Made by a program: the position numbers and the translations under genes
Shown here: positions 213 to 47,004 of the stretch, piece by piece
Layout: the number at the start of each line of letters is the position of its first letter
How positions within the stretch are numbered: the first letter of the stretch is position 1
Notes under the pieces: model-generated
The model's database searches: none
What the model was told of the DNA's origin: nothing
What the model saw: the letters and a program-made list of their open reading frames with translations, nothing else
Virus record (IMG/VR): IMGVR_UViG_2706794697_000013
Strand: one strand, 5' to 3'
Length of the DNA: 48,556 bases
DNA from: a virus
Lineage: Duplodnaviria; Heunggongvirae; Uroviricota; Caudoviricetes

Positions 213-797
213 TTACTCCCTGACAGGGTTCGTAGGCCACTCAATATCAGGTGCAGTTGACGTATCAACACGGTTCAGCAATACCCGATACTTTTTCCAT
301 GCTTCCAGCAACGAGATTTCTTCCTCCGTTGCAATTTCCAGATCTGCAGCATCCTGAAGCGGCGCAATATGCTCACTGGCTACCTGCATCAGGTTGTTTT
401 TTGTTTCTTCCGCCTCCCGGATCCGGAACAGTTTTTCTGCTTCCGTATCCTTCACCCAGGCTGTGCCGTTCCACTTCTGAAACTCCCCTTCCGGCGATAA
501 CCAGGTAACATTTTCCGGTAACGGACCGAGTTCAGAAATAAATAACGCGTCGCCGGAAGCCACGTCATAAACCGTTTTACCCCGATGATCTTCAACGAGA
601 TGCCACGATGACTCATCACTGTTGAAAACAGCCACGAAGCCAGCCGGAATATCTGGCGGTGCAATATCGGTACTGTTTGCTGGCAGACCTGTATGAGGCG
701 GAATATATGCATCACCTTCACCAATAAATTCATTAGTTCCGGCCAGCAGATTATAAATTTTTATGGTCCGTGGTTGTTCACTCATTCTGAATGCCAT
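213..797 (-). CDS. tfa: Tail fibre assembly protein (lambda Tfa / TfaR-like)
   Basis: 194 aa ORF immediately after the stf stop (shared boundary at 797); sequence pattern as recalled for lambda Tfa. Confidence 0.85.
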
Positions 798-3821: not shown

Positions 3822-4473
3822 TCAGAATTTATAACCGACACCCACGATGAAACCGTCAGTGCGCCAGTCGCCACTGCCGGAGCCTTCATAAGCAATATCA
3901 ATGGCCACGGATTCGGTCGGGTTAAACTGCACGCCAGCTCCCCACGCCAGAGACGTGTTGCTGTGGCGACCGTCATCACTTCCGGTCAGCACGTCGTGCG
4001 TTTTCCCCTTGTTGTCAGTTACGCGGAGATAATCCCCGGAGAAAGTCGACACACGGCTGTAAGCCACACCCGCCATCGCATACGCGCTGAACCATTCATT
4101 CACGCGCACAGACGGCCCCGCCATTACGCTGAACCAGCGGTTACGAACGGAATCTTCATGCCAGCGGGTATCGCTGTAACGGGTCAGCTGGCGATTCTTG
4201 TCTCCTGCATAGCTGAATGACGTCACCAGCCCCAGNNNNNNNNNNNNNNNNNNNNNNNNNNNNNNNNNNNNNNNNNNNNNNNNNNNNNNNNTCCGTAAAC
4301 TCATAACGGTATTTCACGTTAATCCCGTTCAGATCATCACTGCCGGGAACGTTGGTCCGGGCATGAAGATACCCCGCGCTCAGCGTGGACTGATGTTCAG
4401 ACGCCCATGCAGGCGCACCGGATACGGCCAGACAAATGGCTGCGGACAAAATTGCTGCACAAACTTTACGCAT
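3822..4473 (-). CDS. lom: Lom-like outer membrane protein (interrupted by an N-run at 4236-4291)
   Basis: N-terminus MRKVCAAILSAAICLAVSGAPAWASEHQSTLSAGYLHA and C-terminal beta-barrel sequence as recalled for lambda Lom; two ORF-track pieces are in frame across the N-run. Confidence 0.75.
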
Positions 4474-8665: not shown

Positions 8666-9291
8666 TTGTCGGTGTACCTCTCTCGTTTACTCAGTTGTTC
8701 AGGAATATGGTGCAGCAGCTCGCCGTCACCACAGTAAATGGCGGCATGATTCGGCACCGATGAACCAAAACAGCACAGCAGCACATCGCCCGGCTGCGCC
8801 GTTGACAACGGCACCTGATACAGCCCTGTAGCCTCCAGATTATCCAGATAGAGATTCTGACCATTACGCCACCAGTCGTCCTCACGATGAAAATCTGGCA
8901 TCTCAATTCCCGCCAGATGGTAAGCGTCCCGGAACAGCGTGTAACAGTCCGTCACCCCGTGCTCAAAGCGCCGCCCGGTGAGATGCGGCACACAGCGGAA
9001 CTNNNNNNNNNNNNNNNNNNNNNNNNNNNNNNNNNNNNNNNNNNNNNNNNNNNNNNNNNNNNNNNNNNNNNNNNNNNNNNNNNNNNNNNNNNNNNNNNNN
9101 NNNNNNNNNNNNNNNNNNNNNNNNNNNNNNNNNNNNNNNNNNNNNNNNNNNNNNNNNNNNNNNNNNNNNNNNNNNNNNNNNNNNNNNNNNNNNNNNNNNN
9201 NNNNNNNNNNNNNNNNNNNNNNNNNNNNNNNNNNNNNNNNNNNNNNNNNNNNNNNNNNNNNNNNNNNNNNNNNNNNNNNNNNNNNNNGCAC
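8563..9291 (-). CDS. Tail assembly protein K-like (NlpC/P60-type); N-terminal part masked by N-run 9003-9287
   Basis: Unmasked C-terminal part (..VPNHAAIYCGDGELLHHIPEQLSKRERYTDKWQRR..) resembles lambda K as recalled; boundaries uncertain because of masking. Confidence 0.55.
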   Translation of the reverse strand: MXXXXXXXXXXXXXXXXXXXXXXXXXXXXXXXXXXXXXXXXXXXXXXXXXXXXXXXXXXXXXXXXXXXXXXXXXXXXXXXXXXXXXXXXXXXXXXXXFRCVPHLTGRRFEHGVTDCYTLFRDAYHLAGIEMPDFHREDDWWRNGQNLYLDNLEATGLYQVPLSTAQPGDVLLCCFGSSVPNHAAIYCGDGELLHHIPEQLSKRERYTDKWQRRTHSLWRHRAWHASAFTGICSDLAAASTFV

Positions 9292-30370: not shown

Positions 30371-30960
30371 TTTTCCTCACATATGTCATATAGTAAAGGA
30401 TTATATATACCGTTGTTTTGGACGCTCAAACAGCGAATCAGATCAAATAAAACGCACATTTGTTAACATTTACACAAAGTCTGCGTGGGATATTCTGAAA
30501 GAATATCCATAATGTGGAGAGAATCTATTGAAGTGCATGGTGCCGGGTGCCTCCCGGTGAACAAAATGTTCGTGATACCTGTCGGCGACAGAAAAGGTTA
30601 ATGGTATCACCCCACCGCACAGGGGGATTCACCATGCAGGAGTTTTCTTAGCAAACTCACTGCGCGCCCGGCAACTCCCAACCACATAAAATGCGGAGTT
30701 TGTGGCATTTATGCATATAACTCGCAGGAATTATCTTAAAAAACTGATGTCGATCCGGATTAAAAAGAAGCAGGTCATCATCAGATGACTGGAAAAAAGG
30801 AAAACAAAAAATACTCATCATACAGTTTTGATTGCAGGGATGAGCCTGCTATGCACAATATGCAGAATATAAGCAAGATAAAAATATGCAGGCATATTAT
30901 TTCGGATCTTGTTATTAACACAACCTTTTTAATAATCATTTGGCATACAATAAACCAGCC

Positions 30961-32244: not shown

Positions 32245-32954
32245 TACGCAAACTCCAGTAGTTGTGCGGCCACATTTTCAACTTCCTCCTGAGAGGAGAA
32301 TTTACGGAACAGAATCCAGTTCCACAGCACATTCAGTACAGATTTATAAACCTGCTGAAACTCGACTTCGTCCATATTCGCAAAAGCGATGGATTTTGCC
32401 CGACGCCCACGGCTACCGTCCGGATAAATATGCTCGGTGTAAAATCCGGCCTGAATGGTTACCCACTCGCGGAAAGCCTCAAACGACTTTAGCAACGCCG
32501 TATCCCGGGTTCTACGAGTCGCAACGGTGTTAAGGTATTGCTCTGCGGCATCACTCAGGGCTGGCGTGTGTTCCCGACCAACTGATTCGCACAGGTAATC
32601 AACGAAACCAGACAGCAGTTCTCGTTCGCGAGGCGTGATCGCCCCACCGACCGGAGTCCAGTAATCGAATCCCAGTTGCNNNNNNNNNNNNNNNNNNNNN
32701 NNNNNNNNNNNNNNNNNNNNNNNNNNNNNNNNNNNNNNNNNNNNNNNNNNNNNNNNNNNNNNNNNNNNNNNNNNNNNNNNNNNNNNNNNNNNNNNNNNNN
32801 NNNNNNNNNNNNNNNNNNNNNNNNNNNNNNNNNNNNNNNNNNNNNNNNNNNNNNNNNNNNNNNNNNNNNNNNNNNNNNNNNNNNNNNNNNNNNNNNNNNN
32901 NNNNNNNNNNNNNNNNNNNNNNNNNNGGTGTAAAGCCCCACATAGCATGAACAA
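32244..32954 (-). CDS. Nin-region protein (DUF1367-like), N-terminal part masked by N-run 32680-32926
   Basis: Unmasked C-terminal ~145 aa in frame with the masked stretch; lies between replication genes and ybcO-like gene. Confidence 0.4.
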   Translation of the reverse strand: MFMLCGALHXXXXXXXXXXXXXXXXXXXXXXXXXXXXXXXXXXXXXXXXXXXXXXXXXXXXXXXXXXXXXXXXXXXXXXXXXXXXXXXXXXXQLGFDYWTPVGGAITPRERELLSGFVDYLCESVGREHTPALSDAAEQYLNTVATRRTRDTALLKSFEAFREWVTIQAGFYTEHIYPDGSRGRRAKSIAFANMDEVEFQQVYKSVLNVLWNWILFRKFSSQEEVENVAAQLLEFA

Positions 32955-34620: not shown

Positions 34621-35622
34621 TTAGTAATCTGCGTGTTTCGCACTTTTCAGAAATGCTTTCATATTTTCATTAGGTCGCTCAATTTCGAAGTTACTTCCAT
34701 ATAACTCTTGTAATTTTGGCCATAACTTACTTAATAACCCTCTCCTGCGATAAAATGGATGTATCCAAACGGTAGATAGGTACGGAGAATTTGCATTTGA
34801 ATTGTTTATTGTGACCAGCCCAACTAAACATTGTCGATAACCACTATTATCCATTGATTGTATTTCTTCGACGAATGGATACGCGATTACATCAGTCCAA
34901 CCATGATCGGTTGTATCCCATTGCATTCCGTCATGACATTCCTTCGACTGATAGCGGCGTAAAGCTACACACGCGAGCTTTTGCCAATCTGGAGAATTAA
35001 TTGTGATCTCTTCATCGTATGACGCGCCTATTGGAGCGGGTATTGGTCTGATTAATCCAGCATGGCATTCATCATAGAACTTCATGTTTCCCTCAGAAAC
35101 GTTGTGTACGTTGGGTTGCTCCATGTGTGCGCCATTCAAAAATAGCTCTGATAGTAGTGTATCTACACTGTAATCTTTATTGATTATTGTCGGCTTAGAG
35201 TTTTTCTTATTAAGGCCGCGAGTAACGATTTTTTGATCAATGTTAACAACATGGAATAATCCGTCGGGGAGGCTAGCGAACCACGATGGGGCATCGGACC
35301 AGAATAGCATGCCTTTTGTACTTCTTAAGAGTTTAATTAAGTTAATACAAGCTTCTTCACTAGTCTTGCCGTTGATGCGAAGTATGTTAGGACTAAAGTA
35401 ATATTCATCCATATCAGGGAATGCAGCTTCGCAAAACTCCTGTACATAATTTAGCACCTGGATTCTACAGAGATCATCATAGCTGGTAATAACTAAGGGG
35501 GTATCTTCATTACTATTATGATTATCAATAATGCAATCTATAGCGAGACTTACTGCTTTGCGTATCACTTCAGTTGAATCTAACGACTCTAAAAATTTTG
35601 TCTTTCGTGTGCGAATATCCAT
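34621..35622 (-). CDS. Hypothetical protein B (333 aa) with GNAT-like C-terminal motif; second gene of AT-rich cassette
   Basis: ATG at 35622, 15 nt after protein A stop; C-terminal ..LSTVWIHPFYRRRGLLSKLWPKLQELYG.. resembles GNAT motif A; AT-rich. Confidence 0.6.
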   Translation of the reverse strand: MDIRTRKTKFLESLDSTEVIRKAVSLAIDCIIDNHNSNEDTPLVITSYDDLCRIQVLNYVQEFCEAAFPDMDEYYFSPNILRINGKTSEEACINLIKLLRSTKGMLFWSDAPSWFASLPDGLFHVVNIDQKIVTRGLNKKNSKPTIINKDYSVDTLLSELFLNGAHMEQPNVHNVSEGNMKFYDECHAGLIRPIPAPIGASYDEEITINSPDWQKLACVALRRYQSKECHDGMQWDTTDHGWTDVIAYPFVEEIQSMDNSGYRQCLVGLVTINNSNANSPYLSTVWIHPFYRRRGLLSKLWPKLQELYGSNFEIERPNENMKAFLKSAKHADY

Positions 35623-35637
35623 GTATGACCTGCGCTA

Positions 35638-36660
35638 TTAAAATTCATGAATGAACGGTTTGTCATCTGGTTGCAAAATGGTGGTTTTATTCGTTGCTAC
35701 ATTTAAACTGTTGTAGAGCATAATTGCCAGGTTCGATGCATTTTCAATCAGCGTTTCAAGATCCTGGTCTGTAATCACTACGAGGTTCCCTTCTTTATCC
35801 TTTCCACCACGATGCACTAAGTGATTTCGATTGAGGGTTGCCAATTCAATAGCTTCTATCGGACAGTCTTTTTGTACTTTTATATCGAATGTAGCTTCAT
35901 AGCGGTCGATTACCTTTTTAGTGCTATGCCAGCTTGCACTGATCAAGTGTTCCTTGATTGACCTGATTAGCTCTCCCCTAATTTTCTCGATGGGTTCACC
36001 CTTGAAAGGCAACGCAGCAATATCTTTGCTTACTTTAAATTCAGTCTTACCTTTTTCTATACAATTGGCTATGTAGACATCATCTTTCTCTATAGAATTA
36101 ATGAATAGCTCAACATAAAGCGTTTCCAAAGCTGTAATAACATTCGTGTAGAGCAAACTAAGCAAGTGGTTTTTTTGCTGTTGTTCAGTTTTATCTTTTG
36201 CAAGTTTTTTTATTTTATCGATATTATCAATGAATTTTAAATACGGATTACCGGAAGACGTTACAGCGTCGTAGATATCATCATCGTACCAATCATCTAT
36301 ATTATTTGAGTTTCCAGACCAGTCAAAACATTGTGTTTGTAATTCATCTACTAATTCCTCAATATACTCAGATTTAACATATTGACCGAAGATGGATTGT
36401 AGTTCTTCGCTCGCATCATACGGCCCGCCATATATGTAAGCATAGCCACCTTCTCTACTTTCATACGGACAAGCATTTGCCGGATCTTCAAAGTTTTCAA
36501 AGAACCAGTTTTTCATTACTTCGAGTTGATCTTTTTTGCTTATGTATTTTAAAGATTTTAGTGGAACTTTCTTTCCATTAACCTCGAAAACAATTTTCAC
36601 GATGTAACGCTCCCTTGTATCAATTGCGCAACTATTATACCACAGCGAAATACAGGGCAT
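35638..36660 (-). CDS. Hypothetical protein A (340 aa) with C-terminal HEPN-type Rx4H motif; first gene of AT-rich cassette
   Basis: GGAGG RBS 6 nt upstream of ATG at 36660 (ORF track extends 23 codons further); C-terminal ..ELATLNRNHLVHRGG.. fits R-x4-H; about 36 percent GC by hand count. Confidence 0.6.
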   Translation of the reverse strand: MPCISLWYNSCAIDTRERYIVKIVFEVNGKKVPLKSLKYISKKDQLEVMKNWFFENFEDPANACPYESREGGYAYIYGGPYDASEELQSIFGQYVKSEYIEELVDELQTQCFDWSGNSNNIDDWYDDDIYDAVTSSGNPYLKFIDNIDKIKKLAKDKTEQQQKNHLLSLLYTNVITALETLYVELFINSIEKDDVYIANCIEKGKTEFKVSKDIAALPFKGEPIEKIRGELIRSIKEHLISASWHSTKKVIDRYEATFDIKVQKDCPIEAIELATLNRNHLVHRGGKDKEGNLVVITDQDLETLIENASNLAIMLYNSLNVATNKTTILQPDDKPFIHEF

Positions 36661-36798
36661 AACCTGCCTCCTTAAACTAACATACCATGAGCCAGCAATG
36701 TCCGCTATTGGCACAAAGCGGACAACCACGCTAGCTCTCCCCTGTGCCAGAAAAATGTCAATTTACATATGAACTAATGCTCTTTGATCTAGTAACGT

Positions 36799-37230: not shown

Positions 37231-37992
37231 TCACTTTTCCGACACAATACGACTGGAGGAATCGACAATCTGTCGGACAATATCCCGGTGCTTGTTCAGC
37301 TCCCGCAGCGCGGCGCAGACTCGCTCCCACTTCTGGACATGATTTTTCGCCCGACGCAGTTCGCGGTTTGCCATATGCAGCGATGGTAAAACTAGGTCAT
37401 CCGCTTGCGTTTCAGTAAACGATGGCAGCGACTGCACAATGTCCGCCACAGTTTCTGTTTTAATATCTTCCTGTGTTGCCGCTTCCTGTACTGGTAACGC
37501 AACACCGGCTGGCTGAGGAAAGGCTTTACCATCAGTTTCCGCTACCGATGCAGCTTTCGGCTCTGCTGGTAAATTATCGCCCGGCATGCAGTAACGAAAT
37601 TTACTGTTCTGGTTTACGCGAATCAGGCGTCCTTTGCTGATTGCCATTGCCAGCGTTGAAGCAACTTTGCGGGATGTTGTACCGAACAGCGTAGCCAGTT
37701 CATCCGCCGTTTGTGGTCCGCGTTGTTCAATCGTCGCGGTTAAATCGCACTCTGAGATTTTCACTACAGTTGCCGTGGTGGTTTCTTCCGGCAGTTCTGC
37801 CTGCATTGGCTGTTCCTGCTGAACGTTGTTATCAGCCACACGCCAGGTGTACGCGCTTTTATCAACGAAACCAGCTTTTTTCAGTTCCCATAGTTCGTTC
37901 AGCACTTCTTCACGACTGATATCAAGTCGCGCAGCAAGTTCTATGGATGTGGCTTTTCCCATTGCTTTCAGTGCGTCAAAAACAGTCTCCAT
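37231..37992 (-). CDS. Hypothetical protein with two winged-helix-like segments (253 aa)
   Basis: GGGAGG RBS before ATG at 37992; ..[26 protein letters not shown].. and ..[31 protein letters not shown]..; follows ydaV. Confidence 0.45.
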
Positions 37993-38014
37993 AAAAATTT
38001 CCTCCCGGTAAAAA

Positions 38015-38761
38015 TTACTTCTCAATTCCTGGCTGGACGACATTCGGACGCCAGCTCTCCCAGTTAAAATTCACCCATCGCCCGCCGTTCATGGTCATGC
38101 GATCCATAATCCGCTCGCCGAGCAATGTTTTCATGGCCTCATAGTTCAGGTTTGTCAGCATCCCCACGCTGCGCATCGACGCTGTCCGGCGATCAACAAT
38201 CTGGTGCAGCACCACCTGCTCGTTTTTCGTCTCGCGCTGAATGCCAATTTCATCAAGAACCAGCAGATCCACTTCGCATAGTTCCCGCAAAAATTTTTCG
38301 CCTGACTGCCCATCGTCATAGCTGGCGTGCAGGGCACTCATAACATCAGCCACGGTAACCACAATCACTGTCTGACCGTCTTTCAGCAGGCGATTCCCGA
38401 TAGCTGCCGCTAAGTGGTTCTTCCCGGTACCAGGTTTTCCGCTGAACGCAAAATTTGTACACCCGGTCATCAGTTCATCAGCGATGGATTTCGCCTGACT
38501 CAACGCGTATCGCTGCGCTTCGTTCTGCACCTGGTAATTCGAAAACGAGCATTTGCGGTGCAATGGCTGGATGCCAGAGCGATTCAGAATTTTTTCCACC
38601 CGCAACTGACGATTCTGACGGTTGATCTCCTCACAACGTTTCTGGCCTTCGGAAAGTTGCCACTCGCGCCACTCCGCTACCGTCTTGAATGGCGCGGTTA
38701 CATGTGACGGGGCCAGTCTGCGGATACGTTCAAGAACGTCGCCTGTCGCAATATTTTTCAT
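38015..38761 (-). CDS. ydaV: DnaC/IstB-like replication ATPase
   Basis: 248 aa with Walker [16 protein letters not shown] and Walker B LLVLDEIG; same length as K-12 Rac YdaV. Confidence 0.8.
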
Positions 38762-38767
38762 GGTCAG

Positions 38768-39625
38768 TTACCCCCTGAAGCCTGGCGGGATCGCACTATC
38801 CGGTAACGAGACGGTGTTAACCTGTCGGAGTAACGTCTCAGGTCGAACACCTTTCGGCGCGAACAAGCCCTGGTATTCATTGGCGATGCTGTGTCGAATC
38901 ACCTGCTCAGGTGAAAAACCCTGCTGGCGGAATTTTTCCAGCTCCCGTATCGCCCCGTTAGCGCCCTGCTCCGTTCGAATCGGTTTTCGCAATGCCTGGC
39001 GAAATTCAACCCACTCACGCCAAAGCGAGACAGAAATCCAGTTCGGCAAAGCAATATCCAGAGGGTCAAACTTTTTGACACCTCGATTCCCCCGGGGGGG
39101 ATTTAGGGGGGGATCTGTTTTTAGATCTTTATCTGTATCTTTATTAGTTGCCTTTGTGTTGACATCATGTTCAAACACCACTTCAACATCTGTTTGAACA
39201 CCTGTTAAATTTCTCTCTTGTTTTGTTTGAACATCTGCTTCCTTTCTGCTTCTTCTGGCCTGAACAGATGCTTTTCCTGCGGCTGATTTTTTGGTTAATT
39301 TTTCCCTGACTGATGCCAGATCTTCCTCAATCCGAAGATGCACCCATTCCTCGCCGTTATCGCAAAAAAACTCCTGCAAGGATGGTTCAACATCAGCCCA
39401 TCGCTCGTTAGTCAGACGGGCAATTTTTGCCAGCCTGTTTTTAGGTATTGGCTTTCCTGTTTGCCAGTAATTGAACATCAGCAACAAATACGCACCATGC
39501 TCCTCTGCTGACAAATGCATGGTGTCAGCCAGGTAATCAGCTATGTACAGTTGCATGTATGGTAATGCGGCCATAATTGCCCCGTATGATGCTGCCCGGT
39601 GGCTTAGAATAAGCACAAACAGCAT
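38768..39625 (-). CDS. ydaU: Replication initiation protein (O-like, DUF1376)
   Basis: 285 aa ORF upstream of the DnaC-like gene, same length as K-12 YdaU. Confidence 0.7.
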   Translation of the reverse strand: MLFVLILSHRAASYGAIMAALPYMQLYIADYLADTMHLSAEEHGAYLLLMFNYWQTGKPIPKNRLAKIARLTNERWADVEPSLQEFFCDNGEEWVHLRIEEDLASVREKLTKKSAAGKASVQARRSRKEADVQTKQERNLTGVQTDVEVVFEHDVNTKATNKDTDKDLKTDPPLNPPRGNRGVKKFDPLDIALPNWISVSLWREWVEFRQALRKPIRTEQGANGAIRELEKFRQQGFSPEQVIRHSIANEYQGLFAPKGVRPETLLRQVNTVSLPDSAIPPGFRG

Positions 39626-39637
39626 GGAAACTTTTGC

Positions 39638-40060
39638 TTAATGAACAATGACAGAATCGTCGGAAGACCCGCCGCCGCTGAAATGCGCTTTCCGGTAAAC
39701 GGCTTGGACTGCATCATCATGCGCATCAATTGCCGTACTTAACGCTTCCTGCGCCGCCAGTAATGCACGGCGTTCCAGGGTATCGAAGATGCAGAGTCGG
39801 TGACGCAGCTCGCGCGGAAGGATTGCCAGAATTGCTGGGATCAGCTTCTGAATTTTTTCTCTTTGCGTTTTCGTTTCACCTTTCAACCAACGGTGATAGA
39901 TATTCTGCTGATTATTCCAGTCCTTGCCTGGTACCAGGGGCAATTCGCCGCCCCCCTGGCGCAGATATTCTTCAGTAATGGCATTGGCTACCCATGCCTG
40001 CCCTTTTTCGGCTGCCAGGGCTAACAACACTGACTCGATGTGCTCATGCTTGATTTTCAT
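39638..40060 (-). CDS. ydaT: CII-like regulator / toxic protein YdaT
   Basis: 140 aa ORF immediately downstream of the cro-like gene; matches Rac gene order and length. Confidence 0.7.
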   Translation of the reverse strand: MKIKHEHIESVLLALAAEKGQAWVANAITEEYLRQGGGELPLVPGKDWNNQQNIYHRWLKGETKTQREKIQKLIPAILAILPRELRHRLCIFDTLERRALLAAQEALSTAIDAHDDAVQAVYRKAHFSGGGSSDDSVIVH

Positions 40061-40311
40061 GAATCAACTCCCATCAGCTTTTTCGTAGTAGTTTTATTTC
40101 TGCCAATAGTTAAAATTACATCAGCAGAAAATAATCCGTTTGATGCATGAGCGATTTTTTCAGCGTAATTTGTTTCGCCGGTATATTCTGTGCGAGGCAA
40201 TTTTCCGTTATCCATCCATTTGTAGATTGCTCTTTGGCTGACACCACAAACGTCGGCCACAACAGAAACGCGAACAGTTTTGATTACATCTTCAAGTGTT
40301 TTCTGGTTCAT
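40057..40311 (-). CDS. ydaS: Cro-like HTH regulator YdaS
   Basis: HTH ..DVCGVSQRAIYKWMDNGKLP..; ATG at 40311 with GAGGGTG RBS; divergent from the repressor gene; exact start uncertain. Confidence 0.65.
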   Translation of the reverse strand: MNQKTLEDVIKTVRVSVVADVCGVSQRAIYKWMDNGKLPRTEYTGETNYAEKIAHASNGLFSADVILTIGRNKTTTKKLMGVDS

Positions 40312-40372
40312 ATCACCCTCACAATGTGAACTTTGAGTACATGCTATAACAGAACTGACAGTACATTCAAGA
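40312..40372. promoter_or_regulatory. Divergent promoter/operator region between racR and ydaS (OR analogue)
   Basis: 61-bp spacer containing AGTACAT twice (40335, 40360) and a TGAACT..AGTACA near-palindrome; plausible TTGAAT-16-TATAGC promoter on the minus strand. Confidence 0.5.
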
Positions 40373-40810
40373 GTGAATATCATTGAACTTATGGTTCATG
40401 AAGATAAAGCGCGTAAAGAGTTCGCCAGTAGGCTTGCGCTAGCCTGTGAAAACGCTGGTTATGAACAACATGGAAGGCAGGCAGAAATTGCCCGTCGAAT
40501 GAAATTAACACCAAAAGCGGTTAGCAAATGGTTTAATGGCGAAACAATTCCTCGCCGAGAGAAATTAAGGGAATTAGCAACACTCATTGGAACAACACCA
40601 ACCTATCTTTTGGGAGAGGATACAGAAGAAAGTGGACAGGTACGTTTCTATCAGGAGTTAAATCCAAGACAAAAAATCATCATTGACCTTCTGGACGAGC
40701 TCCCTGACAGTGAGACAGATGAACTTTTAAAAACTCTTGAGGAGAAAAAACAGAAGTACAATGCAATTTACGAAGAGCTAGCACGAAAGAAAAAACAAAA
40801 AGCCTCTTAA
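40373..40810 (+). CDS. racR: Prophage repressor (CI analogue)
   Basis: 145 aa with N-terminal HTH (..QAEIARRMKLTPKAVSKWFNGETIP..); divergent from cro-like gene; Rac gene order. Confidence 0.75.
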   Translation: MNIIELMVHEDKARKEFASRLALACENAGYEQHGRQAEIARRMKLTPKAVSKWFNGETIPRREKLRELATLIGTTPTYLLGEDTEESGQVRFYQELNPRQKIIIDLLDELPDSETDELLKTLEEKKQKYNAIYEELARKKKQKAS

Positions 40811-40879
40811 ACCAGCATAAATCCGGTAGCGTCCCCCTCCGGGTTTGTGCTTCACTTTATCCCATCTCATTTTTTTACA

Positions 40880-40935
40880 CACAAAATGTACTTATAGTAC
40901 TTTACATCAATGAACACAAAGTACATTATATACCT
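40880..40935 (+). promoter_or_regulatory. Early-left promoter with operator-like repeats (OL/pL analogue)
   Basis: ATGTACTTATAGTACTTTACAT and AAGTACATTATATA carry the same GTAC(A/T)T motif as the OR side; TTTACA-17/18-(C)ATTATA promoter-like spacing. Confidence 0.45.
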
Positions 40936-41100
40936 ACCAACCCACCCCGCCCCACAGAACGCAGGGCAATACTTCGAGTTACCAGGCAGTGGTCAGGGGT
41001 TAAGTAGCCAGCCCGAGGCGTATGAACATGACGGCAGGGTTCAGATTTTGCAGTGCAGCAGGTTTCAGTTCCGCCACCCGGCGTTAAGGGGAGAGATAAG

Positions 41101-41235
41101 ATGGTGCATTACGAAGTAGTTCAGTATTTGATGGATTGTTGCGGTATCACTTACAACCAGGCTGTGCAGGCTTTACGCAGCAACGACTGGGATCTCTGGC
41201 AGGCAGAAGTCGCTATACACAGCAACAAGATGTGA
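41101..41235 (+). CDS. ydaG: Rac early small protein YdaG
   Basis: 44 aa MVHYEVVQYLMDCCGITYNQAVQALRSNDWDLWQAEVAIHSNKM, recognised. Confidence 0.7.
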   Translation: MVHYEVVQYLMDCCGITYNQAVQALRSNDWDLWQAEVAIHSNKM

Positions 41236-41245
41236 GATTCGCAAA

Positions 41246-41401
41246 ATGCAAAAAATCGACCTCGGCAACAACGAATCCCTGGTGTGCGGCGTGTTCCCCA
41301 ACCAGGATGGAACGTTCACTGCCATGACGTATACCAAAAGCAAAACATTTAAAACCGAAACTGGTGCGCGCCGATGGTTGGAGAAGCACACAGTAAGCTA
41401 A
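41246..41401 (+). CDS. ydaF: Rac early small protein YdaF
   Basis: 51 aa MQKIDLGNNESLVCGVFPNQDGTFTAMTYTKSKTFKTETGARRWLEKHTVS; below ORF-track cutoff, read from DNA. Confidence 0.65.
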   Translation: MQKIDLGNNESLVCGVFPNQDGTFTAMTYTKSKTFKTETGARRWLEKHTVS

Positions 41402-41886
41402 CGATTAAAACGTCTACTCCTGCTGTTCCAGAATAACTTCATAAAATGGGAGTATTTTTCGGTGACGAGATAATAAGAACAGTTTGCGCTATCACTCTGA
41501 TGTTGAATGATGCCCTTCCGTTCTAATTTTTTCATAACCGGGTTACGGCAAGGAGAAGTGATAATAAGATTTCCTGTTTTAAGGAAATCTTTAAATACAG
41601 CGATTTCTTTCTCAGATAAACGAAGCAATACTCGTTGCTCTGGTAGTAATGAATAATGCTTTTGAATATGTGCTCGCAATCTTGAGAAGGAAATGGCGAC
41701 CACGAAAGAAAAGGCAAAAACGATAATCTGAAAGAGCCAAGGTATTTCAGTATAAGCATTGAATGCGACAGTAAACTCTTTCGGTATCAGCCAGAGAGTG
41801 AGACCAAAAATGATAATCGTATACATAAGTATTTCGAGTGGCTCGTTAGCAAAAAGTTTCAACAATGGAGTAAATACATCCAACAT
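41398..41886 (-). CDS. sieB: Superinfection exclusion protein B
   Basis: 162 aa from ATG at 41886 (MLDVFTPLLKLFANEPLEILMYTIIIFGL..), membrane protein, opposite strand to flanking early genes as in Rac. Confidence 0.8.
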   Translation of the reverse strand: MLDVFTPLLKLFANEPLEILMYTIIIFGLTLWLIPKEFTVAFNAYTEIPWLFQIIVFAFSFVVAISFSRLRAHIQKHYSLLPEQRVLLRLSEKEIAVFKDFLKTGNLIITSPCRNPVMKKLERKGIIQHQSDSANCSYYLVTEKYSHFMKLFWNSRSRRFNR

Positions 41887-42103
41887 ATCAATAACTCTCA
41901 ACTGTAAGGGTATTGAAATGTTAACACAAGCTCTCGCTGTAGGGGTATAGCCGAGACCACCGAAGCCCGGAGGTGGTGAAATAAAACCGGGCACAACACG
42001 AAGGCGCATTTCCGATATCCATAAAGAGTCGGTCTTGTCTGTTAAATTTAAATGGTGGGAGTGCGCCTCCGGTTGTAAATAACGACATTGCTGTGTGTAG
42101 TCC

Positions 42104-42160
42104 TGGCGGCATCAGTTTTTTTCTTGAAGTTCGGCTGATGTCCGCCCTTTTTAAAGTGAA
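42104..42160 (+). terminator. Hairpin with T-runs in the sieB-kilR intergenic region (candidate early-left terminator)
   Basis: GGCGGCATCAG..CTGATGTCCGCC imperfect inverted repeat followed by CTTTTTAAAG; imperfect stem, low confidence. Confidence 0.25.
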
Positions 42161-42327
42161 TTTTGTGATGCGGTGAATGCGGCTAAGCGCACGTGGCACA
42201 GTTAAAAGTCATGTTAGTCCTTATTGGTTTGGGTGGGAAAGCCGACTGTAATTGTTAACTGGTTGCAGTCACCTGGAGGCACCAGGCACCGCATCAACAA
42301 AGTTCATTTGTAAAAATGGAGATAATT

Positions 42328-42549
42328 ATGATTGCACATCACTTCGGAACTGATGAAATACCACGTCAGTGTGTGACTCCTGGCGATTATGTTCTTCATG
42401 AAGGCCGGACATATATTGCCTCGGCAAACAATATTAAAAAGCGAAAACTATATATTCGTAACCTGACCACAAAAACATGCATTACTGACCGCATGATTAA
42501 AGTCTTCCTCGGTCGTGATGGTTTACCTGTAAAGGCGGAGTCATGGTGA
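42328..42549 (+). CDS. kilR: Cell division inhibitor KilR
   Basis: 73 aa [73 protein letters not shown], recognised. Confidence 0.85.
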
Positions 42550-42719
42550 TGACTAAGAAAATAAAATGTGCTTACCACCTTTGCAAAAAAGACGTTGAAG
42601 AAAGCAAAGCTATTGAAAGAATGCTTCACTTCATGCACGGGATTTTATCAAAAGACGAACCGAGAAAATATTGCAGTGAAGCTTGTGCCGAAAAAGACCA
42701 GATGGCACATGAACTTTAA
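42549..42719 (+). CDS. ydaE: Cys-rich small protein YdaE
   Basis: 56 aa [56 protein letters not shown]; start overlaps kilR stop (ATGGTGATG); below ORF-track cutoff. Confidence 0.7.
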   Translation: MTKKIKCAYHLCKKDVEESKAIERMLHFMHGILSKDEPRKYCSEACAEKDQMAHEL

Positions 42720-42793
42720 TTAATTGACTATTCGAAACTGAATTTATGCCAGAAATGGCAGGTATTCGCTCAACCTTAATTAAGGAGAAAAAC

Positions 42794-43069
42794 ATGATTA
42801 CCAATTATGAAGCCACTGTTGTAACTACCGATGACATTGTTCACGAGGTGAATCTGGAAGGAAAGCGCATTGGCTACGTAATTAAAACAGAAAATAAAGA
42901 AACCCCATTCACTGTGGTTGATATCGATGGTCCATCAGGCAACGTAAAAACACTTGATGAAGGTGTCAAAAAAATGTGCCTGGTGCATATCGGAAAGAAT
43001 CTGCCCGCAGAAAAAAAAGCCGAATTTCTGGCAACTCTAATTGCAATGAAATTAAAAGGTGAAATCTGA
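42794..43069 (+). CDS. racC: RacC
   Basis: 91 aa from MITNYEATVVTTDDIVHEVNLEGKRIGYVIK.., recognised; sits upstream of recE. Confidence 0.75.
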   Translation: MITNYEATVVTTDDIVHEVNLEGKRIGYVIKTENKETPFTVVDIDGPSGNVKTLDEGVKKMCLVHIGKNLPAEKKAEFLATLIAMKLKGEI

Positions 43070-46628: not shown

Positions 46629-46823
46629 ATGAGATATGACAATGTTAAACCATGTCCATTTTGTGGTTGTCCATCAGTAACGGTGAAAGCCATTTCAGGA
46701 TATTACCGAGCGAAGTGTAACGGATGCGAATCCCGAACCGGTTATGGTGGAAGTGAAAAAGAAGCACTCGAACGATGAAATAAACGAACCACTGGAAATA
46801 ATAATGGAGGTGTTCATGTATAA
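46629..46823 (+). CDS. ralR: Restriction alleviation protein RalR (Lar)
   Basis: 64 aa MRYDNVKPCPFCGCPSVTVKAISGYYRAKCNGCESRTGYGGSEKEALERWNKR.. read from DNA. Confidence 0.8.
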
Positions 46824-47004
46824 AATTACCGCCACTATTGAAAAGGAAGGTGGCACTCCTACTAACTGGACAAGATATTCAAAATCTAAACTAACGAAAT
46901 CAGAATGCGAAAAAATGCTCTCAGGTAAAAAAGAAGCAGGCGTTTCCAGAGAGCAGAAAGTAAAACTGATAAATTTTAATTGCGAGAAACTTCAGTCCTC
47001 GTGA
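46816..47004 (+). CDS. ydaC: YdaC
   Basis: 62 aa from MYKITATIEKEGGTPTNWTRYSKSKLTKSECEKM..; ATG overlaps ralR stop. Confidence 0.6.
   Translation: MYKITATIEKEGGTPTNWTRYSKSKLTKSECEKMLSGKKEAGVSREQKVKLINFNCEKLQSS

Follow-up and report, generated by a model that had tools for sequence, protein, structure and literature searches.

Several kinds of prophage immunity region and repressor offer a framework for the locus described here. In phage lambda, three operators lie over the divergent promoters PR and PRM, with the centres of OR1 and OR2 about 24 bp apart; PL is found downstream of cI, and the cI mRNA is leaderless. In the 933W/phi24B-type region, where OR1 to OR3 and OL1 and OL2 have been mapped experimentally, the operators are 15 bp long with a critical G(A/T)AC at positions 2-5, and a T at position 3 increases the affinity of the 933W repressor more than 3-fold (PMC3317979). 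The 235-aa CI of HK022 carries an S24 self-cleavage domain, and the 933W repressor, likewise equipped with an S24 domain, can be cleaved in the SOS response. DicA of the Qin prophage and GfoR, GfhR and GtgR of the Gifsy prophages are smaller proteins (∼135-150 aa) in which a helix-turn-helix is followed by a helical C-terminus lacking Ala-Gly/S24; cleavage does not occur in DicA and the Gifsy repressors, which are released by antirepressors (PMC3121763; PMC10448788). [quoted passage not shown]

We have analysed a stretch of 48,556 nucleotides of viral DNA (IMG/VR record IMGVR_UViG_2706794697_000013), hereafter the window, in which an immunity switch with repeats on both sides of racR had been proposed at 40312-40935. 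Our results indicate that this is very probably the immunity region of a Rac-like prophage in which an HK022/933W-type repressor/Cro/operator cassette stands instead of RacR/YdaS, working by the mechanism outlined below, which was reconstructed throughout from homology and position. The locus is a further example of a known lambdoid switch type and adds no new principle of gene regulation.

An immunity cassette within a Rac backbone

Comparison by blastn showed 98-99% identity to K-12 Rac over window positions 37543-40066 and 40935-43057, with no match between the two segments. The DNA of the cassette that lies there (Table 1) shares 96% identity with phage Tritos and ∼70-82% with HK022. Among 5426 complete E. 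coli genomes, 1047 contained it and 1085 the K-12 racR-ydaS cassette; the two are alternative modules of about equal frequency in the species. A Shigella flexneri genome that gave a 100% protein match differs from the window, the DNA identity being 98.4%. Prophage backbone, position in the gene order, ydaT and YdaT-box are shared with K-12 Rac, and so is the general architecture, namely a divergent region with three operators, of which the third covers the repressor ATG, a main repressor promoter with a leaderless transcript (in K-12, PMC9638921; probably also here) and, 3′ of the repressor gene, two further palindromes that surround a strong promoter. By contrast, neither the repressor nor the Cro-like protein nor the operator sequence is related to its K-12 counterpart.

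Table 1. Features of the immunity region, with positions in the window; operator scores were obtained with the 933W-type matrix
Feature	Position	Strand	Remarks
Immunity cassette, 868 bp	40067..40934		In place of K-12 racR-ydaS and operators (blastn)
ydaT (CII-like regulator)	39638..40060	-	139/140 residues identical to K-12 YdaT; Pfam YdaT_toxin match
YdaT-box TTGATTCATGAAAATCAA	40050..40067	-	Over ydaT start codon; fits CP-933P consensus TTGATT-N6-AATCAA
Cro-like gene, 84 aa	40057..40311	-	62% identity with HK022 Cro (E 2e-34); start as in RefSeq
OR1-equivalent operator TGAACTTTGAGTACA	40327..40341		Score 15.5; just downstream of PR -10, over expected PR start
PR -10 hexamer TATAGC	40343..40348	-	Preceded by TGT (extended -10); positional equivalent of annotated HK022 pR -10
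OR2-equivalent operator AGAACTGACAGTACA	40351..40365		Score 15.9; in PR spacer, over PRM -35
PRM-like promoter CTGACA-17-TATCAT	40355..40383	+	Promoter scan, 10/12 matches
PR -35 hexamer TTGAAT	40365..40370	-	Positional equivalent of annotated HK022 pR -35
OR3-equivalent operator TGAACTTATGGTTCA	40384..40398		Score 16.9, window maximum; centred on repressor start codon
CI-like repressor, 139 aa	40391..40810	+	HK022/933W-type helix-turn-helix (residues 1 to ∼75) and DicA-type helical tail (∼81-138)
OL2-equivalent operator TGTACTTATAGTACT	40887..40901		Score 16.2; perfect GTACT/AGTAC arms; adjoins PL -35
PL-like promoter TTTACA-17-CATTAT	40901..40929	+	Promoter scan; matches annotated HK022 pL -35/-10 positions
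OL1-equivalent operator TGAACACAAAGTACA	40911..40925		Score 10.6, rank 7; in PL spacer, overlaps -10

The Cro-like stop codon overlaps the ATG of ydaT (ATGA, 40057-40060), and ydaT appears to be the first Rac-backbone gene under PR. In the Tritos annotation the Cro-like ORF has 108 aa, with a start upstream of the predicted PR. The YdaT-box is, judging from its sequence, the CII-like arm of the switch, retained from the Rac backbone.

Operators and promoters

The repeats on which the original prediction relied do flank the repressor gene, AGTACAT being located at 40336-42, 40360-66 and 40920-26, ATGTACT at 40886-92 and AGTACTT at 40896-902. GTACWT is not enriched in the 48.5-kb window (23 matches versus 31 expected); eight of these 23 matches are clustered inside the 624-bp region 40312-40935, which also holds 7 of the 109 GTAC cores, with 1.4 expected (Poisson P ∼6e-4). 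The full repeat unit is longer than GTACWT and consists of a pseudo-palindrome of 13-15 bp, G(A/T)AC(T/A)-N3-(A/G)GT(A/T)C, whose 15-bp form, (T/A)G(A/T)AC(T/A)-N3-(A/G)GT(A/T)C(A/T), has the GTAC(A/T)T repeats as half-sites. Of the five such pseudo-palindromes found, three lie between the divergent genes and the other two 3′ of the repressor gene; the motifs noted before are real, though the third site of the divergent region (40384-98, over the start codon) had been missed. A pattern derived post hoc from these already seen data, GWACWNNNWGTWC, has five exact matches in the window versus 0.5 expected, four of them within the two intergenic regions. An independent matrix, with the five operators annotated in GenBank GQ499361 (933W-type) as sole input, gave its four top scores in the window at 40384, 40887, 40351 and 40327, in this order (Table 1). 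The best score after them was 10.7, and the fifth site, 40911, came seventh.

The oR, oL, pR and pL features annotated in HK022 (X16093) map position for position onto the window. The half-sites of the OR1-equivalent, which aligns with the HK022 oR feature 430-444 (L049 locus coordinates, record X16093), are invariant across 20 taxa, and the distance of 24 bp between the OR2- and OR1-equivalents is the same in HK022 and in most of 43 related loci. The OR3-equivalent is identical in sequence to both OR1 and OR3 of HK022; located 33 bp from OR2 and beginning 7 nt 5′ of the ATG, it shows the commonest geometry of the family. On the other side of the gene, the OL2-equivalent could be aligned to the oL site of HK022 and to 14 further taxa, and the OL1-equivalent lies 24 bp from it, as across the family. 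The latter is probably the weakest of the five predicted sites; its left arm has an A at position 6, a substitution that reduces the affinity of the 933W repressor (PMC3317979). At the expected position of a third OL site no score of at least 5 bits was obtained in the window.

As had been proposed, the repeats overlap promoter hexamers on both flanks of the repressor gene, which is borne out by the promoter scan together with the HK022 alignment. The PR -10 is poor, the family consensus being CATAAT, and was missed by the consensus scan because this demands T at position 6. The -10 of PRM, in turn, is kept as TAnnnT across 20 taxa at a constant distance from the repressor ATG. Since this hexamer ends only 7 nt before the ATG at 40391, the predicted repressor mRNA is probably leaderless, and no Shine-Dalgarno was seen in the sequence upstream of that codon. 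The ATG at 40391 is the RefSeq start and is conserved in the family as M-V-H/Q, while the alternative GTG at 40373 is located upstream of the predicted PRM -10; the divergent region therefore spans 79 bp (40312-40390) and not the 61 bp given originally. The PL-like promoter is conserved in the taxon alignment and points to ydaG, ydaF, kilR and recET. No Rfam RNA families were detected in or near the region.

Comparison with described immunity regions

HK022, whose operator and promoter positions were taken from the GenBank annotation (X16093/AF069308), is one of the closest described counterparts of the locus: the operator half-sites are alike, the spacings are 24 and 33 bp in OR and 24 bp in OL, OR3 covers the cI ATG, and the PR, PRM and PL hexamers occupy equal positions. 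At DNA level the two are ∼70% identical between cro and the 5′ portion of cI and 82% identical across OL, and the N-terminal domain of the repressor is 47.5% identical to that of HK022 CI. HK022 differs, besides its longer self-cleaving CI, in an extra operator, GGTACTAAAAGTACA, located ∼300 bp beyond OR, at the expected place of which the window has no score of at least 5 bits, as well as in its flanks, which are cII, O, P and nun in HK022 but Rac-type here (ydaT, ydaU and ydaV; ydaG and ydaF).

With the 933W/phi24B-type region the locus has in common operators of 15 bp carrying G(A/T)AC at positions 2-5 of each half-site, the three OR sites with OR3 over the cI ATG and the presence of only two OL sites, without OL3; the N-terminal domains are 50.7% identical. 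The 933W-type sites, however, have C as their first base (CGTAC, CGAAC), and the recognition helix of 933W reads S-S-K. In the window, as in HK022, most sites have T as first base and the helix reads T-P-K, with P41 in place of the S41 of 933W. Residues K42, S45, K46, W47, F48 and N49 of this helix, as well as E51, are invariant in the alignment of HK022/933W-type domains. In the 933W repressor, K42 has been implicated in DNA binding by a structural model, and K46A is one of the two binding mutants that were built (PMC3317979). The lambda-style OR/OL layout of the original prediction stands, with operators flanking the repressor gene over divergent PR/PRM and over a downstream PL of the same orientation as in lambda. 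The locus departs from lambda in the operator sequence, in having just two OL sites, in an OR2 that covers the PRM -35 rather than abutting it, in a repressor without S24 domain and in YdaT holding the role of CII.

The comparison was extended to 43 loci from other bacteria encoding a related DNA-binding domain, from Enterobacterales to Vibrio, Haemophilus and Pseudomonas. Within the 110 bp upstream of the repressor ATG at least three sites were present in 36 of the 43 loci and at least two in 42, the commonest geometry being that of the window (24 bp, 33 bp and 7 nt to the ATG); 121 of the 171 operator matches fall in 3.7% of the sequence. In the operator alignments the half-site columns are invariant and the centres variable. 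The operators are equal whether a relative has an S24 tail or the short tail, while at the dicA locus, where the tail is shared but the helix-turn-helix is different, no G(A/T)AC-type operators were found; DicA and K-12 RacR each have their own palindrome. Operators hence track the DNA-binding domain, and neither the tail nor the prophage backbone. The functional phage Tritos has equal operators and a repressor, annotated as 'CI repressor', that is 100% identical to that of the window; its CI expression in the lysogen was 24-fold above background (PMC9928086).

The repressor protein

The repressor stops at residue 139 with three helices, and Pfam gave no Peptidase_S24 match in it. Because the S24 domain is missing, the region is to be considered as an HK022-type module of operators and DNA-binding domain, not as one with a full HK022-type CI. 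Its size and general build are those of the DicA and Gifsy repressors, although the DNA-binding domain and the operators are of HK022 type and not of DicA type. BLASTP against K-12 DicA gave E 5e-15 over 112 aa, covering the tail, and the NCBIfam DicA model matched residues 29-137 with E 2e-15, its 56.8 bits remaining under the 101-bit cut-off; the motif LxP(K/R)(E/Q)..LLeLF..LP.SE.D is common to the tails of both proteins, and PHROG 5736 also matches the repressor. In a representative search the DicA-type tail was found on ∼40 small proteins, 15 of which were retrieved and show several visibly different N-terminal helix-turn-helix sequences. A sequence search of the PDB returned as sole match the P22 C2 N-terminal domain (E 0.006), and a fold search with an AlphaFold model gave generic XRE-family matches only, too weak for an assignment of the tail. 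Far down the list of the fold search were SinR, the SPC32H repressor and an arbitrium-phage repressor.

Proposed switch and its release

In the mechanism that we propose, the CI-like repressor would be made from the PRM transcript, probably leaderless, and would bind as a dimer to the 15-bp pseudo-palindromes, with the G(A/T)AC of each half-site as key bases. Occupancy of OR1 and OR2 would cover the PR start, spacer and -35 and block this promoter, leaving the cro-like gene, ydaT and the replication genes silent. Occupation of both OL sites would bracket the PL -35 and cover its -10, which would silence ydaG, ydaF, kilR and recET. In agreement with the idea that the repeats are a control point, this role appears very likely from the sequence for the rightward (cro-like, ydaT, ydaU, ydaV) and leftward (ydaG, ydaF, kilR, recET) operons, though not for ydaS, which is absent. 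The location of OR3 over both the PRM start and the repressor ATG suggests negative autoregulation, and OR3 is also likely to be the first target of the HK022-like Cro. With OR2 over the PRM -35, bound repressor may either activate or repress PRM. Cooperativity differs even between the HK022 and 933W repressors and, as the C-terminal domain is different here, that of neither can be assumed.

Since a DicA-type helical tail replaces the S24 domain, lambda-like self-cleavage would be impossible as the route of induction, and release would most likely occur by an antirepressor acting in trans or by stochastic flipping through Cro. The antirepressors of DicA/Gifsy-type repressors are small proteins such as Rem and GfoA, often controlled by LexA. 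As for candidates in the window, K-12 Rem gave no tblastn match, no GfoA-like antirepressor was found, and neither Ant nor Rha nor KilAC was found between the replication module and Q (Pfam, PHROG); a gene of this kind could lie elsewhere in the genome. The ImmA/IrrE gene of Tritos is absent from the window, which contains no ImmA homologue, and PADLOC gave no match for the neighbouring accessory genes. The LexA box CTGT-N8-ACAG has no exact match in the window; matches with one mismatch are mostly GC-rich, many of them within ORFs, and one AT-rich intergenic match of this kind lies at 42246-61, upstream of kilR.

Alternative explanations

The original prediction took the sites as operators of a K-12-type RacR that holds ydaS-ydaT off, a natural reading where the Rac backbone on both sides is 98-99% identical to K-12, ydaT is 99% identical and the gene order is that of K-12. 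Nevertheless, the identification of the window genes as racR and ydaS is refuted at sequence level. BLASTP between the repressor and K-12 RacR aligned 12 identical residues out of 33, in the helix-turn-helix only, and the NCBIfam RacR model did not match the window repressor; the similarity of the divergently encoded protein to YdaS was not significant (E 0.028), with no match to Pfam YdaS_toxin (PF15943), which K-12 YdaS matches at 2.6e-31 as a control. Moreover, TAGGC-n3-GCCTA occurs six times around K-12 racR, on both sides, and is absent from the corresponding intergenic regions of the window, where the lone nearby match has two mismatches and falls within coding sequence, the window total being below chance; at the K-12 racR locus, in turn, there are no G(A/T)AC-type operators. 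RacR control of these sites is consequently very improbable. A similarly small chance is given to the possibility that the sites mainly serve the CII-like YdaT instead of the divergent repressor, even though K-12 YdaT footprints ∼100 bp of the racR-ydaS intergenic region in addition to its own box (PMC11879457) and the YdaT of the window is nearly the same protein. The YdaT recognition sequence, (A/T)TGATT-N6-AATCAA, is unrelated to G(A/T)AC-N5-GT(A/T)C (PMC11879457), and the sites, which follow the CI-type domain, recur in HK022, in 933W, in Tritos and in dozens of loci, ydaT being absent from at least some of these.

That the repeats arise by chance, or as a by-product of AT-rich promoter DNA without any protein partner, could be argued from the GC content of the two intergenic regions (0.35-0.38 versus 0.47 in the window), the lack of window-wide GTACWT enrichment and the modest clustering of GTAC. 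This is the least credible of the alternatives, as 400 Markov-1 random windows had on average 0.078 matrix matches of at least 15 bits and at most one, against the four observed, and the same geometry, with invariant half-sites and variable centres, recurs in 36-42 of the 43 distant loci. Slightly less remote, though still highly unlikely, is that the operators are real but flipped by RecA-stimulated self-cleavage of the repressor in the SOS response, as in lambda, HK022 and 933W. HK022 CI and 933W CI, the closest characterised relatives in the DNA-binding domain, and many relatives with N-terminal domains 62-72% identical to that of the window do carry Peptidase_S24. Against it stand the short repressor with its three terminal helices and no S24, the likeness of its tail to DicA, which together with the Gifsy repressors is released otherwise, and the behaviour of Tritos, which with an identical repressor was not over-induced by trimethoprim but fell 3.4-fold, and which does not figure among the prophages reported to be induced by ciprofloxacin (PMC9928086).

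Implications

The HK022/933W-type cassette, located at a Rac-like or Qin-like prophage in about one-fifth of the complete genomes of E. coli, is easily mistaken for racR-ydaS; RefSeq provides only generic labels ('helix-turn-helix domain-containing protein' for the repressor). What has been found in K-12 on the essentiality and the operators of RacR, and on cross-talk with C proteins, should not be carried over to cassette strains. As regards essentiality, which had been invoked for this locus, only ydaT (99% identical) is shared with K-12 and the argument would transfer only through it, racR and ydaS not being present. Cassette strains may be immune to HK022-type phages, and induction would be expected without dependence on RecA-stimulated cleavage.

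A bolder reading, which we regard as tentative and rather unlikely, is that the repressor is a natural chimera joining an HK022-type DNA-binding domain to a DicA-type C-terminal module that is also found behind other helix-turn-helix domains. If the tail of such a chimera were a shared surface for dimerisation and antirepressor docking, induction would proceed solely in trans, via the antirepressors of other resident prophages, and would be blind to RecA, and if this reading were true the operators would confer cross-immunity with HK022-type phages. The cassette of this possible chimera is present in ∼19% of complete E. coli genomes.

Predicted operators and promoters

The GTAC(A/T)T repeats of the region 40312-40935 had been proposed as lambda-style OR/OL operators through which RacR silences ydaS-ydaT. 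The motifs listed in that original prediction are found at their positions, but S3 had been overlooked, and GTAC(A/T)T corresponds to a single half-site plus flank of a longer element. The predicted operator unit is a 15-bp pseudo-palindrome, (T/A)G(A/T)AC(T/A)-N3-(A/G)GT(A/T)C(A/T), present in five copies: S1, S2 and S3, equivalent to OR1, OR2 and OR3, and S4 and S5, equivalent to OL2 and OL1, with a spacing of 24 bp for both S1-S2 and S4-S5 and of 33 bp for S2-S3. The hexamer GTACWT shows no enrichment over the whole window (23 found, 31 expected), and GTAC cores are clustered, with 7 of 109 inside these 624 bp against 1.4 expected (P ~6e-4). A repeat finder returned a three-copy 22-nt family, TGAAC...AGTACAT, at 40327, 40351 and 40911, and paired 40384 with 40887. 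When the window was scanned with a symmetrised matrix made solely from the five 933W-type operators annotated in GenBank GQ499361, the four best scores of the 48.5 kb were S3 (16.9), S4 (16.2), S2 (15.9) and S1 (15.5), followed by a next-best window score of 10.7, S5 reaching 10.6. Four matches of at least 15 bits compare with a mean of 0.078 and a maximum of one in 400 Markov-1 random windows, and the same matrix found no site at K-12 racR or at Qin dicA. Judging from 933W affinities, the repressor would be expected to bind S4, whose two arms both contain GTAC, most strongly and S5, with A at position 6, most weakly.

Features of the immunity region and other annotated elements of the window
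Feature	Position	Strand	Remarks
ydaV	38015-38761	-	
ydaU	38768-39625	-	
ydaT	39638-40060	-	
YdaT-box (predicted)	40050-40067	-	TTGATTCATGAAAATCAA; spans ydaT ATG
Cro-like gene	40057-40311	-	84 aa
S1	40327-40341		TGAACTTTGAGTACA
PR -10 (predicted)	40343-40348	-	TATAGC, TGT before it; HK022 position
S2	40351-40365		AGAACTGACAGTACA
PRM-like promoter	40355-40383		CTGACA-17-TATCAT; consensus scan
PR -35 (predicted)	40365-40370	-	TTGAAT; HK022 position
S3	40384-40398		TGAACTTATGGTTCA
Repressor gene	40391-40810	+	139 aa
S4	40887-40901		TGTACTTATAGTACT
PL -35 (predicted)	40901-40906		TTTACA; HK022 position and consensus scan
S5	40911-40925		TGAACACAAAGTACA
PL -10 (predicted)	40924-40929		CATTAT; HK022 position and consensus scan
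ydaG, ydaF, sieB, then kilR and recET			Beyond repressor gene in gene order
IS009 RNA	256-454	-	Rfam, above gathering score
STnc100 sRNA	30481-30667	-	Rfam, above gathering score
RalA antitoxin sRNA	46822-47000	-	Next to ralR; Rfam, above gathering score

The layout is that of HK022 (X16093), in which three oR sites, the pR -10 and -35, two oL sites and the pL -35 and -10 are annotated and cI starts 7 nt into the third oR site; shifted onto the window, its oR and oL features fall on S1, S2, S3 and on S4, S5, respectively, and S3 has exactly the sequence of both OR1 and OR3 of HK022. The -10 of the PRM-like promoter ends 7 nt before the repressor ATG, and S2 covers its -35.

Conservation in relatives

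A one-genome-per-species scan yielded 43 loci whose products are related to the N-terminal domain; they range from Enterobacterales to Vibrio, Haemophilus and Pseudomonas. In the 110 bp preceding the repressor ATG, at least three sites occur in 36 of the 43 loci and at least two in 42. The arrangement seen most often, with spacings of 24 and 33 bp and 7 nt to the ATG, is that of the window, and 121 of the 171 matrix matches lie within 3.7% of the sequence. When 20 OR and 15 OL regions were aligned, the half-site columns proved invariant and the variation lay in the central bases; both the PRM -10 (TAnnnT) and the PL hexamers are conserved. The invariant N-terminal M-V of the protein coincides with ATGGT in the centre and right arm of OR3. 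The same sites accompany S24-tailed and short-tailed relatives alike; the operators track the DNA-binding domain.

A cassette exchanged relative to K-12 Rac

The window covers a Rac-like prophage almost in full, in the orientation opposite to that of K-12, and its YdaT is 139/140 identical to the K-12 protein. The role and layout proposed for the switch agree with our data, but the identity of its proteins does not. The supposed RacR can be aligned to K-12 RacR across the helix-turn-helix only (12/33 residues), and the supposed YdaS, a Cro-like protein, has no significant match to YdaS (E 0.028) and no Pfam YdaS_toxin match (K-12 YdaS, 2.6e-31). A blastn comparison with K-12 Rac gave 98-99% identity over 37543-40066 and 40935-43057, with no match between. 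An 868-bp immunity cassette (40067-40934) has thus been swapped; it ends at the last base of the YdaT-box (breakpoint 40066/40067) and just past the PL -10. The cro-like stop codon overlaps the ydaT start (ATGA, 40057-40060), and the K-12 ydaS-ydaT gap is 22 bp. Of 5426 complete E. coli genomes, 1047 have the cassette of the window and 1085 the K-12 racR-ydaS cassette. The former is also present in an isolated phage, where it already bears the annotation CI/Cro.

Footprinted K-12 RacR operators read (T/A)TAGGC-n3-GCCTA(T/A), with O3 over the racR ATG and a leaderless main promoter (PMC9638921). Six such palindromes flank K-12 racR, four in the divergent region and two downstream of the gene, and thus the OR/OL idea holds for Rac generally; none was found at the corresponding places of the window, which appears to carry a repressor-operator pair different from that of K-12 Rac. 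The discussion in the RacR study is confined to the racR-ydaS intergenic region (PMC9638921). The downstream K-12 pair, TAGGTAATGCCTA and TAGGCTATGCCTA (2131-2143 and 2156-2168 of locus L001, NC_000913; 25 bp apart), brackets a near-consensus promoter, TTGACA-17-TATAGT, in an OL/PL-like manner.

The repressor is 100% identical to the 'CI repressor' of Escherichia phage Tritos (tblastn, phage genomes), and its N-terminal domain shares 47.5% identity with HK022 CI over residues 4-102 and 50.7% with 933W-type CI over 1-73. K42, S45, K46, W47, F48, N49 and E51 of the recognition helix are invariant; in 933W, K42 is modelled contacting conserved bases and K46A is one of two binding mutants built (PMC3317979). 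Between the Cro-like protein and HK022 Cro the identity is 62% (E 2e-34). Tritos Cro is annotated as a 108-aa ORF (OV696610, L005/L051, 31285-31611) starting within the operator region, upstream of the predicted PR; the shorter form of 84 aa, which has the RefSeq start and aligns with HK022 Cro from residue 1, is more likely correct.

Proposed regulation and induction

From the sites, their statistics, the HK022 correspondence and the conservation observed here, we infer the following regulatory roles. Repressor dimers at S1 and S2 would occlude PR (cro-like gene, ydaT, replication genes) and those at S4 and S5 would occlude PL (ydaG, ydaF, kilR, recET), while S3, over the PRM start, would mediate autorepression and is the probable Cro target. 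HK022 CI shows cooperativity and OL-OR looping (PMC8053113), and the 933W repressor binds OR1-OR2 without cooperativity (PMC5977221). YdaT at its own box would provide a CII-like establishment input, with K-12 as precedent (PMC11879457); the box fits the CP-933P consensus and not ATGATT... of K-12.

The 139-aa repressor lacks a Peptidase_S24 domain, and in its AlphaFold model (pLDDT 82.6) a short linker joins a DNA-binding domain of five helices to three helices at the C-terminus. The tail resembles K-12 DicA (BLASTP E 5e-15, 112 residues, including LxP(K/R)..LLeLF..LP.SE.D), and the NCBIfam DicA model covers residues 29-137 (E 2e-15, below cut-off). Among 1.8 billion representatives, the 64-aa tail was found C-terminal in ~40 small proteins, and the 15 carriers retrieved include several visibly different N-terminal helix-turn-helix sequences; the DicA-type tail looks like a portable repressor module. 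Its recurrent motif (40616-40807, residues 76-139; proteins P0045-P0072) is LxPRQ..LLdLLdeLPdSE.DeLLktLEEKK..Y, and the helix-turn-helix of one carrier, P0050, weakly matches the NCBIfam RacR model (E 1.7e-4, below cut-off).

Short repressors such as DicA and Gifsy GfoR/GtgR are uncleaved and are released by antirepressors (PMC3121763; PMC10448788). Tritos is produced spontaneously, its yield falls 3.4-fold with trimethoprim, and it is not among the prophages reported as ciprofloxacin-induced (PMC9928086), behaviour consistent with this class. Since the window contains no exact LexA box (CTGT-N8-ACAG), Rem homologue or ImmA, release by an antirepressor can be proposed only by analogy. Of 25 matches with one mismatch, only the near-LexA box CTGTAATTGTTAACTG (42246-42261), upstream of kilR, is both AT-rich and intergenic.

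Other features of the prophage

Masked (non-ACGT) runs at 4236-4291, 9003-9287 and 32680-32926 lie inside tail-fibre genes and an early-region gene, and ORFs across them are unreliable. Two adjoining ORFs of 333 aa (34621-35622, minus strand) and 363 aa (35638-36729, minus strand) are located between replication and late-regulation genes. They gave no PADLOC match and weak Pfam matches only (GNAT; HEPN/RES N-terminal domain 1), and may represent accessory or defence cargo. In the prophage of E. coli strain 1428, which is 99.5% identical elsewhere, a KilA-N gene and a hypothetical gene take their place.
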